Translations under genes and position numbers: made by a program | Assembly: GCA_035687145.1 (NCBI GenBank) | Contig: DASRYM010000013.1 | Coordinates: forward strand, 11,677-75,676 | Direction: 5' to 3' | Length of the DNA stretch: 64,000 bases | DNA from: Candidatus Zixiibacteriota bacterium | Lineage (GTDB): Bacteria > Chloroflexota > Limnocylindria > QHBO01 | Shown: positions 17,302-38,506 of the stretch, piece after piece | How the letters are laid out: every line of letters starts with the position of its first letter | Numbering within the stretch: position 1 is the stretch's first letter | The notes under the pieces: generated by a model | What the model was told of the DNA's origin: nothing | The model's database searches: none | The model's input: only the letters and a program-made list of their open reading frames with translations

Positions 17302-18176
17302 GCGTCGACGCAGCCAACCCCGAGCACACCCACGAGCAGGAGCACCGGCTCGGCCGACCAGCTCCGCCCGGCAGCGGGTATCCGGTCGGCAGCCCGATGC
17401 CCGACCACCTCGGCGATGTGATCGTCCGGACCACCGGCCTGGAGAAGTACTTCGGCACGAACCACGTCCTGCGCGGCGTCGACATGGAAGTGCGCCAGCG
17501 GGAGGCGGTGATGATCATCGGCCGTTCGGGGAGCGGGAAGACGACCTTCCTGCGATGCCTGAACTTCCTGGAGGAGCCCACCATCGGCTGGATCGAGATC
17601 GACGGCGTCCGGGTCGAGGCCGATCCGCTGCGCGCGCGCAGCCGCGCGCACCAGGAGCAGATCCGTCAGATCCGGCTGCGCGCCGGGATGGTGTTCCAGG
17701 ACTTCGCCCTCTTCCCGCACATGACGGCGCTCGAGAACTGCATCGAGGCGCCGGTCCGCGTGCGCGGTCTGCCCGAGGAACAGGCGGTGGCCCTGGCCGA
17801 GAAGTTCCTGGACAAGGTGGGGCTGCTGGAGAAGCGCGACGAGTACCCGTCGCGGCTGTCCGGCGGGCAGAAGCAGCGGGTGGCCATCGCCCGCGCGCTG
17901 TGCATGGAGCCCAAGGTGCTGCTCTTCGACGAGCCCACCTCGGCGCTCGACCCTGAGCTCATCGGCGAGGTGCTCAACGTCATGGAGGAGCTGGCCCACG
18001 AGGGCACGACCATGATCGTGGTCACCCACGAGATGCATTTCGCGCGCGAGGCGGCCGACCGCGTCGTCTTCATGGACCAGGGCGTCATCGCCGAGCAGGG
18101 ACCCCCGGAGCAGATCCTGGAGGCGCCGACCCAGGAGGCGACGAAGCGGTTCCTGCGCCGGTTCCTGCTCACCTAG
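17298..18176 (+). CDS. Amino acid ABC transporter ATP-binding protein
   Basis: 292 aa from ATG 17298. Walker [10 protein letters not shown], signature [15 protein letters not shown], Walker [13 protein letters not shown] ~45-aa N-terminal extension precedes the ATPase core. Confidence 0.9.
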
Positions 18177-35501: not shown

Positions 35502-36506
35502 TCAGGCCGACCCGCTGGTGACGGGGCGGCCGTCCGAGGCTGCCGAGCGACCGGCACGGCGGAAGACCGCCACGATCTCCCAGGCGGTGATGCCCACCAC
35601 GGCGGCGGCCAGCAGGAGCATCGCCGGGCCGGTGCCGTCGGCCAGCGCGGGCCAGCCGAGCGCCTCGGCGAAAGCGGGGTTGATCAGGGCGCCGCTCAGC
35701 GCCAGCCAGGCGACCGGCACCGCGAAGGCGACCTGCAGGATGGCGTGGACGAAGGCCAGGACGGCGTTCCACCGCCCCACGACGAACGCCATGACCTGGA
35801 GGGCGGCCAGCGCCACCAGGACCGCGATCAGGATCGGCAGCCACCCGTCCCACAGCCCCGGGTTGAAGAGCGGGATGGAGTCGCCGCGCTCATCGGTGAA
35901 CCACGCGGGCTGCTGCAGGAACAGGATGCCACCGATGGTCAGCGAGGTCGTCACGAGCTCCCCCACCATCTCGCCCGCGCCGACACGGACGTTCGGCAGT
36001 GCCGGCAGCATGTCCACCGTCCACTGGCGGCTGGCCTTCTGGACCTCGTCCCTCGCGCCGCGCATCGCGTCGGCGCGCTCCACCACCGCGAAGGTGGCCG
36101 TCACCCAGAAGACCATGTGCACGGCGGCATTCCACGCCCCACCGACGCCAGCGGCCAGGGCATCCCAGTAGTCTCCGCCGCCGGCGAGCTTCAGCGCCGC
36201 CACCACCAGGCCCACGATCGGCACACCGGTGGCCAGCAGCATCACCAGGATGTGGCGGTAGACCAGGAACAGGTCCGGACCGATGAGGTGGAAGGGCCGC
36301 CCGGCCAGATCCGCGGCGAGGCGTGATGGCTCGCCCATCGCCTCCAGGACGGCCTTCTCGGCGGCCAGGCGTTCCTCTCCCGCCGCGGTGCGGTCCTGGA
36401 CAGCCTCCTCGATCGATGAGCGGAACTCGCGCTCAACGTCGGCGCGCTGACGCTCGGGGATGCCGCGCAGGACGGCGGCCAGGTATCGGTCAGTCAGCGA
36501 GGTCAT
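35502..36506 (-). CDS. PadR-associated polytopic membrane protein (HAAS / permease-prefix-domain-like N-terminus)
   Basis: About 334 aa from ATG 36506. The cytoplasmic helical N-terminus is LTDRYLAAVLRGIPERQRADVEREFRSSIEEAV, followed by at least 6 TM helices. The start overlaps the PadR 3' end by 17 nt. Confidence 0.7.
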   Translation of the reverse strand: MTSLTDRYLAAVLRGIPERQRADVEREFRSSIEEAVQDRTAAGEERLAAEKAVLEAMGEPSRLAADLAGRPFHLIGPDLFLVYRHILVMLLATGVPIVGLVVAALKLAGGGDYWDALAAGVGGAWNAAVHMVFWVTATFAVVERADAMRGARDEVQKASRQWTVDMLPALPNVRVGAGEMVGELVTTSLTIGGILFLQQPAWFTDERGDSIPLFNPGLWDGWLPILIAVLVALAALQVMAFVVGRWNAVLAFVHAILQVAFAVPVAWLALSGALINPAFAEALGWPALADGTGPAMLLLAAAVVGITAWEIVAVFRRAGRSAASDGRPVTSGSA

Positions 36507-36843
36507 GGGGGGTGCCTCCATTCAGGGCGTGCAGCGACGCCGTCAGGTCGTTCATCTCGGCCAGCAGCCGATCAGCTAGCGCCGCGCCCTGCGGGCTGGT
36601 GCGGTAGAACTTCCGCGGTCGCGACTCGTCGGTGTTCCACACGCTGACCAGCAGCCCGCGCTCCTCCAGCCGGCGCAGCAGCGGATAGATGGTGTTCGCG
36701 TCGCTCGGGATGCCGGCCGTCTCCAGCGTCTTCAACAGGCCGTAGCCGTAGCCCGGGGTGCGGAGGGCGAGGAGGCAGGCAAGCACCACCGTCCCCCGAC
36801 GGAGCTCCTGCCGATGTCCCGCGACCAGGTCCTCATCTATCAT
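36490..36843 (-). CDS. PadR-family transcriptional regulator
   Basis: 117 aa with LACLLALRTPGYGYGLLKTLETAGIPSDANTIYPLLRRLEERGLLVSVW...RKFYRTSPQG. Confidence 0.9.
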   Translation of the reverse strand: MIDEDLVAGHRQELRRGTVVLACLLALRTPGYGYGLLKTLETAGIPSDANTIYPLLRRLEERGLLVSVWNTDESRPRKFYRTSPQGAALADRLLAEMNDLTASLHALNGGTPHDLAD

Positions 36844-36850
36844 GGCTGCG

Positions 36851-36880
36851 ACAATAGTGTGTGACGCACAATAGTGTCAA
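36851..36880 (-). promoter_or_regulatory. PadR operon promoter TTGACA-18 nt-TATTGT with two 10-bp direct repeats (ACACTATTGT) over -35 and -10
   Basis: The minus strand reads TTGACACTATTGTGCGTCACACACTATTGTCGCAGCC-ATG. The ATG is 7 nt after the -10 (leaderless geometry). This is the most AT-rich spot in the neighbourhood. Confidence 0.5.
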
Positions 36881-36916
36881 GCCTGGGCGCCAGGGCAGGC
36901 CCCGATGGCTCAGGCC

Positions 36917-37082
36917 GCCCCGACTGCTGGCGCCGAATCACCACCTGTTGGTGGTAAAGGCGAGGAACCTGCCGCTTCGTCGCGAATCCACCAGCCGGTG
37001 ACCACTGCGGACGAGAAAGGGGCCTGATTTCGGGTCCAGCGCTCGGGAACGTCGCCTTTACCACCAGCCAGTGGTGACTCGG
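36917..37082 (+). mobile_element. Family-B element (~166 bp, MITE-like), copy 1
   Basis: Terminal inverted repeats are CGAATCACCACCTGTTGGTGGTAAAGGCGA and TCGCCTTTACCACCAGCCAGTGGTGACTCGG. There is a central GC hairpin. It ends 12 nt from the SRPBCC stop codon. Confidence 0.65.
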
Positions 37083-37093
37083 ACCGGGAAGGT

Positions 37094-37552
37094 TCAGCCG
37101 GTGGGAGCGCGCCCCTCCATCATCGCGACGGCGCGGGCCATGGCGCGTCGCATAGAGCTGCGCAGGTTGCGCTCGATCATCGGCGCCATGAACCCCATCA
37201 GCCGCGGGTGCTTGAGCTCGAGGGTGTTCGTTTGCGTCCAGTGGGTCCCGTCGCCGTTGGACTCGTAGGCCCACGATCCCCCGCCACCGCCGACCCACGA
37301 CGAGTCGACGTCCACGAACGCCGCGCTCGTCCGCTCACCTCGGCGGAAGAGCTGGTACTCCAGCGTCATGCGGCCGACGGACCTGATCTCGAGCCGGACG
37401 CGAAGCGGCTCGTCGGAGAGAACCTCGGCCGACACGACGGAGTCGTCCCACTCGGCGCGGTGCGCGTAGTCCTGGGTGAAATCGAAGACGGCGACCCGGT
37501 CGCGCGCGACATCGACCGTCTCGGAGACGGTCACCGTGCGTCGAGTTGCCAT
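37094..37552 (-). CDS. SRPBCC (START/polyketide cyclase-like) family protein
   Basis: 152 aa with VDVARDRVAVFDFTQDYAHRAEWD. Family-B elements flank it on both sides. Confidence 0.75.
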   Translation of the reverse strand: MATRRTVTVSETVDVARDRVAVFDFTQDYAHRAEWDDSVVSAEVLSDEPLRVRLEIRSVGRMTLEYQLFRRGERTSAAFVDVDSSWVGGGGGSWAYESNGDGTHWTQTNTLELKHPRLMGFMAPMIERNLRSSMRRAMARAVAMMEGRAPTG

Positions 37553-37622
37553 GCCGCGACGGTATCGCGGCGGCGCCGCGGGTCGAATCCGACGAAGGAC
37601 GTATCGCCGGCCCGACGGACGG

Positions 37623-37791
37623 CCGTCTGCTGGCGTTGGTGCCGATTCACCAGCAGGTGGTGGTAAAGGCGAGGAACCAGCCAGTTCGTCGCGAATTCAC
37701 CAGCCGGTGACCTCTTCCGACCAAGAAGGGGCCCGGATTCGGCCCCCGCGCTCGGGATCGTCGCCTTTACCACCAGGTGGTGGTGACTTCG
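37623..37791 (+). mobile_element. Family-B element, copy 2
   Basis: Same architecture and orientation as copy 1, but more diverged (GATTCACCAGCAGGTGGTGGTAAAGGCGA ... TCGCCTTTACCACCAGGTGGTGGTGACTTCG). Confidence 0.65.
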
Positions 37792-37805
37792 TCACCCTCC
37801 GGGTC

Positions 37806-37973
37806 GCCCCCGACTGCTGGCGTCGAATCACCACCTGTTGGTGGTAAAGGCGAGGAACCTGCCACTTCGTCGCGAATCCACCAGCCGGGGACCACTAGGG
37901 GCGACGATTGGGGCTCGAATTCGGCCCCAGCGCCCAGGATCGTCTCCTTTACCACCAGCTGGTGGTGACTCGG
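37806..37973 (+). mobile_element. Family-B element, copy 3
   Basis: It lies 14 nt after copy 2. It is nearly identical to copy 1 in its first ~85 nt and its last ~35 nt, and differs in the centre. Confidence 0.65.
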
Positions 37974-37997: not shown

Positions 37998-38381
37998 CTA
38001 CGGCTGCTCCCCGGGAGCCGGCATCGGGCTCATCAGCTGGAAGTAGTTGCCGTCGGGATCCGCGAAGGTGGCGATCAGCCCGTCCTCGCCCTCGAAGCCG
38101 TACGGCTCGCGAAGGACGATGGCGCCGGCCGCCTTGAACCGTTCGAAGTCGGACCGCACGTCGGTCGATTCCACGTTCCAGATGATCCGCCCGGGATGCA
38201 CGCTCTTCCCGGTGACCTCGCTGTGCGGACCGATGGTGACCGCCCCGCCACCGAGGAGCCAGCCCGTGTAGCCGCCGTCCTTCCACCCCGGCTCGCCGAA
38301 GAGCCGCGTGTAGTAGTCGACCAGCGCGTCCGGGTTCTCGGAGCCGATGAGGATGCTGTTGAAGGTCAGGGTGCTGTTCAT
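37998..38381 (-). CDS. VOC-family (glyoxalase/bleomycin-resistance fold) protein
   Basis: 127 aa from ATG 38381 with ATFADPDGNYFQLM. Confidence 0.8.
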   Translation of the reverse strand: MNSTLTFNSILIGSENPDALVDYYTRLFGEPGWKDGGYTGWLLGGGAVTIGPHSEVTGKSVHPGRIIWNVESTDVRSDFERFKAAGAIVLREPYGFEGEDGLIATFADPDGNYFQLMSPMPAPGEQP

Positions 38382-38506
38382 GTTCCTGTGACCGATGCTG
38401 CCGCAGGAACTCATCGGCCTGCAGCAGTTCATGCCGCGGGCCCTCCCGCGCGAGTCTGGCACGCATTCCGCATATGCCATGGGCAGGACCACACCCACCG
38501 GAGCGC

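Follow-up and report, generated by a model that had tools for sequence, protein, structure and literature searches.

The DNA analysed here, hereafter the window, is a stretch of 64,000 nucleotides from contig C13 of G000, a metagenome-assembled genome (MAG) of an uncultured bacterium of the class Limnocylindria (Chloroflexota), and it carries three related elements of about 150 bp on the two sides of a gene of the SRPBCC family. These elements are gene-free members of a repeat family that we call family B. The reading we propose, to which we give a probability of roughly 0.6, is that family B forms a population of repeats similar to REPINs (hairpins formed by pairs of repetitive extragenic palindromic sequences, or REPs), and that this population is kept or spread by a partner protein other than the REP-associated tyrosine transposase (RAYT). 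The candidate partner, P0001, is encoded on another contig (C37) between two copies of the repeat, and combines a helix-turn-helix (HTH) domain of the XRE type with a domain of the restriction-endonuclease type. To our knowledge, what is understood of REPs and REPINs so far involves one partner enzyme, the tyrosine transposase RAYT, and comes mostly from Proteobacteria. Here, a REPIN-like repeat is tied to an uncharacterised protein with an HTH, a nuclease fold and an invariant ExR motif, and several specific protein-repeat pairs are found together in one genome; if the protein acts on its repeats, the REPIN life-style would have evolved more than once.

In the mechanism we envisage, P0001 would recognise and bind the palindromes of the B elements as double-stranded sites. 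It would then cut or copy them, bringing copies into intergenic DNA elsewhere (mostly downstream of genes), or would maintain them where they are. The partnership between P0001 and family B would work as that of RAYT with REPINs, by way of an unrelated protein.

Distribution of family B

The G000 assembly comprises 2.34 Mb in 107 contigs, with 72% G+C and a completeness of 87%. Iterated nhmmer searches over this assembly detected 26 family-B loci, of which about 23 have the full length, spread over 17 contigs, and the true copy number is probably higher since several loci lie at contig ends. All of the loci are intergenic, none overlapping a called gene. Twenty sites were classed by their neighbours: 9 lie between convergent genes, 10 between tandem genes and 1 between divergent genes. 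All but one of the 20 adjoin the 3' end of a gene, and in tandem sites the element is nearer to the stop codon of the upstream gene. The elements are oriented both ways with respect to the flanking genes, 8 of them being antisense and 4 sense in tandem sites.

Clear B elements occur in only two of the 176 genomes of the same GTDB family, namely G000 and the related Limnocylindria MAG G014, with one weak match each in G073, G145 and G120. A pattern scan of GTDB, from which the genome of G000 itself was left out, yielded true members only in G014, and a pattern scan of metagenomes yielded three contigs with true members (L019, L031 and L053). Elements have been gained or lost between the two genomes: at C99:6126-6168 and C91:78294-78418, where G014 has B copies or arrays, G000 has just a spacer of 42-124 nt. 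Exact insertion boundaries are not derivable from such syntenic sites because the intergenic DNA is too diverged.

Some 35 other matches of the metagenome scan were set aside as an unrelated low-GC repeat that shares the 28-nt pattern by chance. The low-GC contigs L020-L060 (37-43% G+C) have CACCACCAGGTGGTGGTAAAGACCATGAAAGACCATTTGCTATTCC.. in common, a separate multi-copy sequence of another organism that could represent the 5' end of the genes of a paralogous family. In G014, short tandem arrays are found beside B elements (L012 on contig C83, at 200-290 and, on the reverse complement, at 60-240; L102:725-1000). They are made of units of 16-20 nt, for example CCCGCTCGTGGCCGGT repeated five times, and of five half-element units of about 48 nt, which indicates that B elements form mosaic arrays in the manner of bacterial interspersed mosaic elements (BIMEs).

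Anatomy of the element

The B element is a near-palindrome of about 150 bp, built as a head-to-head pair of arms of about 30 nt. Each arm consists of the palindrome CACCA-N5-TGGTG followed by TAA-GGCGACGA, and the inverted ends measure 31 nt with 87% complementarity in copy 1 of the window and 32 nt with 84% in copy 2. Between the arms lies a spacer of constant length with a third site of this type in it; this middle site repeats the left arm directly in degenerate form, and in G014 it is a full copy. An element contains in total three CACC..GGTG palindromes (P1, P2 and P3) and four GCGACGA/TCGTCGC boxes, and its core reads (cg)AATCACCA-N5-TGGTGGTAAaGGCGACGA - N10 - TTCGTCGCC - N4 - ATCACCAGCnGCTGACC - N8 - CGACGAA - N30 (variable) - TCGTCGCCtTTACCACCAG-N3-GTGGTGAat(cg).

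Twenty copies with identities of 55-96% can be aligned over 155 columns, of which 7 contain gaps, and the spacings from box to box are 17, 35 and 37 nt in nearly all copies. In these 20 copies conservation amounts to 85-95% in the motif blocks and 53-60% in the loops and spacers; the columns of the palindrome arms are invariant or nearly so, and those of the loops vary. Invariant arms, free loops and rigid spacing point to a protein that recognises double-stranded sequence and not to an RNA.

The candidate partner gene P0001

P0001 is present in a single copy in G000. Its locus was found by synteny, as a 1.15-kb block of G000 lying between genes that are adjacent in G145 and G063. In this block a partial B copy is followed by B copy C37b, P0001 and B copy C37c; G145, where the syntenic gap measures 114 nt, and G063 both lack the whole B-P0001-B arrangement at this position. 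The direct B copies around the gene are 92% identical over 140 nt and occupy positions -196 to -57 and +1 to +140 relative to it. A direct match of 16 out of 20 positions (ACGTTCGCGAGCGGCGGCCG against ACGAACGCGGGCGGCGACCG) flanks the block at C37:16330-16345 and 17450-17470 (about 645-665 and 1745-1765 in the coordinates of L088), and the empty site of G145 has one copy; this match could be a long target duplication or the effect of chance in GC-rich DNA.

The N-terminus of P0001 is an HTH_31/HTH_3 domain. In the AlphaFold model (pLDDT 93 over the full length and 95 in the C-terminal domain), this HTH is followed by a core of the order alpha-beta-beta-beta-alpha-beta. A fold search with the C-terminal domain returned almost only PD-(D/E)xK nucleases, the neighbours being the R2 endonuclease domain, Bax1, OkrAI, EcoT38I, Can2, Hjc and RecU. 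Searching with the whole protein gave a result swamped by the HTH domain, and sequence searches of PDB, PADLOC and NCBIfam gave HTH-level matches only. In an alignment of 40 sequences, E114, D127, E142-T143-R144, D147, Q149, R153, K158 and N177 are invariant. With respect to the PD-(D/E)xK fold, the order of the core and the residues E114, D127 and E142 fit, the position of the lysine is taken by an arginine, and the structural E-values are 0.013 or weaker.

The association between gene and repeat is conserved across genera and is specific to each lineage. Homologues of P0001 are found in 141 of the 176 family genomes, often several per genome; in public collections most of them are found on contigs 1-3 kb long, and XRE regulator is their only annotation. 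The G014 orthologue, 59-60% identical, has B-type elements on both sides and a half-unit array. Twelve loci, those of P0001 and its 11 closest homologues, were compared. Seven of them have direct flanking repeats of 126-147 nt at the same positions, which are about -57 to -290 on the upstream side and +1 to +170 on the downstream side; at an eighth (L109) the flanking match measures 77 nt, and related flanking elements are seen on both sides at 10 of the 12 when judged by eye. The flanking architecture is constant and the palindrome changes with the lineage: CACCA..TGGTG in G000, G014 and G009, TGCTC(A/G)G..C(T/C)GAGCA in five genomes of the genus g22, and other types elsewhere. The palindrome types follow the protein tree, and each repeat type is dispersed only where the genome carries the matching protein lineage, in 3, 3, 4, 15 and at least 26 copies. 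The TGCTCAG type has 3 copies in G051, 3 in G021 and 15 in G132 and is absent from both G000 and G014; of the G009 variant, 4 copies are present in G009 itself. These numbers designate the gene and its two flanking copies as the constant core of the module, accompanied by a dispersed population of 1 to at least 24 elements.

Weight of the evidence and alternative explanations

Several observations weigh against a population kept or spread by P0001. Adjacent copies are often nearest kin (C13a/C13c, C37b/C37c at 91%, C107a/C107b at 96%, and C31a/C31b), so that the pattern is in part the product of local duplication or local copying. Outside these local pairs no two B copies are more than 86% identical, and recent spread is therefore not visible; the subfamily of the window is just 55-65% identical to the copies that flank P0001. 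The genome is 87% complete, and repeats break assemblies. The nuclease-fold matches of P0001 are weak (best E 0.013, TM-scores 0.3-0.45), and since the canonical (D/E)xK lysine is an invariant arginine in its lineage, the domain may not cleave DNA. Finally, the palindrome types also track genus boundaries, so that co-inheritance of gene and repeat alone is not proof of recognition.

Family B could in principle consist of ordinary miniature inverted-repeat transposable elements (MITEs), that is, of deletion derivatives of an insertion sequence that a DDE transposase, missing from the incomplete assembly, would move in trans, the HTH-nuclease-like gene being one more accessory gene that they surround. 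The length of about 150 bp and the 30-nt inverted termini agree with this, as do the patchy occurrence among relatives, the filled and empty sites between genomes, the copies at contig ends of a genome that is 87% complete and the bracketing of a second gene, SRPBCC, by B copies. A first reading of the window, made from the letters alone and called here the sequence-only reading, had noted the terminal inverted repeats and suggested a composite arrangement or an insertion hotspot. We consider the MITE interpretation unlikely. No target-site duplication was found at some 20 copy boundaries, and a scan of G000 revealed no B termini at the spacing of an insertion sequence, hence no longer element with the same ends, a result to be read with the incompleteness of both assemblies (G000 and G014). 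The copies, old and diverged as they are, keep their exact internal spacing and their third internal site, and a repeat-gene-repeat module that extends across genera with a co-varying repeat sequence is not expected from chance insertion beside a passenger gene. A search for the RAYT/Y1 transposase (PF01797), in which the positive controls matched, found none in G000 or G014 and a match in 1 of 101 family genomes.

The only transposase seen near B elements is an IS30-like one with an rve domain (PF00665) in G014. Its fragments lie at the ends of contigs C368, C345 and C258 (L011:1-486, L083 and L084), two of them inside B-type elements and one beside another hairpin, and no copy of it was found in the G000 assembly. 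This IS30-like element was rejected as the parent of family B, as it interrupts B copies and has different ends; the B arrays are landing sites of that insertion sequence and not its derivatives.

We also judge it improbable that P0001 is a regulator of the transcription or nucleoid type and that the B elements form a non-mobile module of multi-site operators, spread by duplication and kept by host selection. The conserved parts are indeed 5+5-bp inverted repeats with free spacers, which is typical of sites for HTH dimers, the spacing is fixed without covariation, an arginine stands in place of the catalytic lysine, the public annotation is that of an XRE-family regulator, and copy 1 is situated just upstream of the PadR promoter. 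However, with 19 of 20 sites at gene 3' ends and a single one in a divergent promoter region, the elements are in the wrong place for operators, and the neighbouring genes are functionally unrelated. Nor would operators account for a copy number that goes from 3 to at least 26 among related genomes bearing the module, for an occupancy that differs at orthologous intergenic sites, or for the invariance of the acidic residues E114, D127 and E142 of the nuclease fold.

A structured RNA, whether a transcribed small-RNA family or a hairpin acting as stabiliser or terminator in 3' untranslated regions, has very little probability. Most copies do fold to a long rod (-60 to -96 kcal/mol, the z-scores being as low as -7), and most lie just downstream of stop codons. 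The sequence-only reading had described a central hairpin with a conserved stem, and such a hairpin is possible in copies 1-3 of the window (-11.4, -12.7 and -13.5 kcal/mol), but over 20 members the central segment does not exceed shuffled sequence in stability (mean z = -0.55), and the hairpin is missing from several copies. Its RNA interpretation falls by the condition that it had set itself, conservation of the structure in an alignment: RNAalifold gave 0 compensatory pairs among 16, and the pairing of the rod is 82.4% as against 82.5% in column shuffles. This lack of pair covariation favours recognition of the sequence over selection for the fold. In addition, the sole match of an Rfam scan of the locus is mir-250 at E = 0.88, which is chance, no U-tract terminator was found at B elements, and the mixed orientation in tandem sites is at odds with a transcribed unit.

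Integron attC-like cassette sites that capture accessory genes such as SRPBCC, as the element-gene-element layout, the imperfect palindromes, about 150 bp long, whose ends are conserved and whose centre varies, and the two accessory genes bracketed by same-orientation copies might suggest, deserve next to no credence, given that the search for the integron integrase (TIGR02249) gave only generic tyrosine recombinases (at most 82 bits for a cut-off of 265), that the B consensus, its ends included, is without GTTRRRY/RYYYAAC (attC R''/R') core sites, and that the copies are scattered over 17 contigs and form no array.

Relation to known repeats

Family B resembles a head-to-head REP dimer or REPIN, and departs from these in the defining enzyme and in the exact geometry of the CGTC tag. 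As in the REPIN-RAYT system (Bertels and Rainey, PMC3116915; bioRxiv 10.1101/2021.07.10.451892), a pair of inverted palindromic units surrounds a less conserved spacer in an element of 100-150 bp, the arms are 31-32 nt long and 84-87% complementary with a rod as the minimum-free-energy fold of most copies, and the elements are almost exclusively extragenic (0 of 26 in called genes). The single-copy partner is likewise flanked by repeats, not only in G000 but also in G014, in G009 and at most other homologue loci examined; a genome has several paralogous partners, each with its own repeat type, and the size of the population varies between relatives. Unlike that system, the partner of family B is an XRE-HTH protein with a restriction-endonuclease fold instead of a Y1/HUH transposase, the elements have no GTAG tag and possess three recognition palindromes each in a rigid spacing, and the host belongs to the Chloroflexota (Limnocylindria) and not to the Proteobacteria.

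The CGTC REPs form a large class for which neither a partner nor a dedicated transposase is known. They are defined by a stem of 8-9 bp with an unpaired CGTC directly at one end, together with a 4-5-nt loop and a short tail that reads CCA (Di Nocera et al. 2013, PMC3733652). The B arm, 5'-T-CGTC-GCCT-[TTACCACC]-loop of 4-5 nt-[GGTGGTGA], shares with them a stem (8 bp) starting with A/T pairs, the loop of 4-5 nt and a CGTC on the head side, and the element shares the head-to-head arms, the structured spacer and a location mainly between unidirectional and convergent genes (PMC3733652). It differs from the same repeats (PMC3733652) in that its CGTC stands 4 nt away from the stem instead of abutting it, its tail is (A)AT/ACT and not CCA, its stem sequence is unrelated to the families described, and its spacer of about 85 nt has a fixed length with a third unit inside. 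With MITEs and elements of the ERIC (enterobacterial repetitive intergenic consensus) or Correia type, family B has in common that it is small, non-coding and intergenic, with inverted ends of about 30 nt and a possible long hairpin; unlike them, it has neither target-site duplication nor parent insertion sequence, and is old, diverged and invariant in length. In the literature, no paper on repeats in Limnocylindria was found.

A possible wider class of protein-repeat pairs

As a tentative extension, to which we would not give even odds, family B and P0001 may be one member of a RAYT-independent class of repeat-enzyme pairs in Limnocylindria. In such a class, XRE-HTH paralogues with a restriction-endonuclease fold would each have on both sides a tripartite palindromic element of their own, about 150 bp long, would recognise their own palindrome, and would copy or maintain a gene-free population of it. 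One such paralogue, P0002, with XRE-HTH and PD-(D/E)xK domains, is encoded in the window itself (Table 1). It is colinear with P0001 over 217 residues with 29% identity (E = 1e-4 for the pair), and has E-V-K at the motif position in its clade where the P0001 clade has the invariant E-T-R. A tblastn search of G000 with P0002 found two other paralogues, on C97 and C31, and matched P0001 only non-significantly (E = 0.63); the paralogue that belongs to family B is a much more divergent one. The paralogues at C97:7643-8299 and C31:31278-31880 have flanking palindromes of their own (GGCTCC-N4-5-GGAGCC and TTGCCAG..CTGGCAA), of which blastn found no dispersed copies in G000, and neither gene is near B elements.

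Were this class real, the way of life of the REPIN-RAYT system would have evolved a second time, independently. Action of the protein on its repeats would also provide a simple recognition code, palindrome against paralogue, that can be tested, and would help to explain the fragmentation of Limnocylindria assemblies at these repeats.

A common leader precedes the HTH-nuclease paralogues (upstream of 13465 in the window, at C37:17239-17295, on C97 and C31, and in L107-L113). It has two direct GATAAG/GGTAAG boxes about 10 nt apart, then ..CATC(A/G)GTC(C/G)(A/G)TG at the start codon, and could be an autoregulatory operator with a start of the leaderless type.

The locus in the window

Table 1. 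Coordinates of the elements and genes discussed. Positions are those of the window unless a contig is named.
Feature	Position	Strand	Remarks
Family-B copy 1	36917..37082	+	core 36933-37082; arms 36933-36963 and 37052-37082
Copy 1, 5' extension	36917-36932		subfamily-specific; CCCCGACTGCTGGCG
P1 palindrome, copy 1	36939..36953		CACCA-CCTGT-TGGTG; read from sequence
P2 palindrome, copy 1	36989-37000		CACC-AGCC-GGTG
P3 palindrome, copy 1	37060-37076		ACCACC-AGCCA-GTGGTG
Family-B copy 2	37623..37791	+	arms 37647-37678 and 37755-37786
Family-B copy 3	37806..37973	+	arms 37824-37853 and 37935-37973
SRPBCC / polyketide-cyclase-like accessory gene	37094..37552	-	Pfam PF10604 (Polyketide_cyc2), E = 1.7e-11
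PadR regulator gene	36490..36843	-	orthologues 77-78% identical in G002 and G063
Glyoxalase/VOC gene	37998..38498	-	stop codon 25 nt from copy 3
P0002	13465..14196	+	XRE-HTH + PD-(D/E)xK paralogue; not family B; flanked by family-A repeat arms (read from sequence)
P0001 (225 aa)	G000:C37:16564-17238	-	outside the window; XRE-HTH + restriction-endonuclease-type (PD-(D/E)xK-like) domain

The three copies of the window lie in one orientation and are 83-88% identical in pairs (blastn E 1e-33 to 1e-51), and the closest kin of copy 3 within G000 is copy 1. Much of what the sequence-only reading had said of them stands: their positions and common orientation, their inverted ends of about 30 bp, their non-coding nature, and the distances that separate the SRPBCC gene from copy 1 (12 nt) and copy 2 (70 nt) are correct, and the 26 loci on 17 contigs bear out a dispersed family as opposed to a local duplication of three. 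It had described the element too simply, leaving out the third CACC..GGTG site and the four boxes. It was right that the window has no cognate transposase, and a candidate cognate gene of another kind is the one found on contig C37 between two B copies.

The SRPBCC gene is present once in G000, with copy 1 on one side and copies 2 and 3 on the other. Among 60 genomes of the same family, none contains a match to it at E <= 1e-10, and an exact look-up of its protein in public records gave no entry. The homology of the locus to relatives ends at about 36881, at the PadR promoter, and picks up again inside the VOC gene. The VOC orthologue of G002 is close to PadR, with neither the SRPBCC gene nor B elements beside it, and the slot upstream of PadR, which holds the SRPBCC gene in G000, is occupied by another VOC gene in G002 and by an acetyltransferase gene in G063. 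From the break of homology at the PadR promoter and the lack of the SRPBCC gene in relatives, it follows that the three copies and this gene constitute a variable accessory slot upstream of the PadR operon and not a local regulatory device. The composite arrangement or insertion hotspot supposed earlier holds to that extent; the SRPBCC gene with its flanks was not found elsewhere as a unit. The elements may have some effect on the neighbouring PadR, SRPBCC and VOC genes.

The promoter-like site of PadR, TTGACA-18-TATTGT, is located at 36880-36851, and copy 1 starts about 40 nt upstream of its -35 hexamer. In G002 and G063 the promoter/operator region of PadR (36851-36881), which includes the repeat CAATAGTGTGTGAC..CAATAGTGTCAAG, is conserved.

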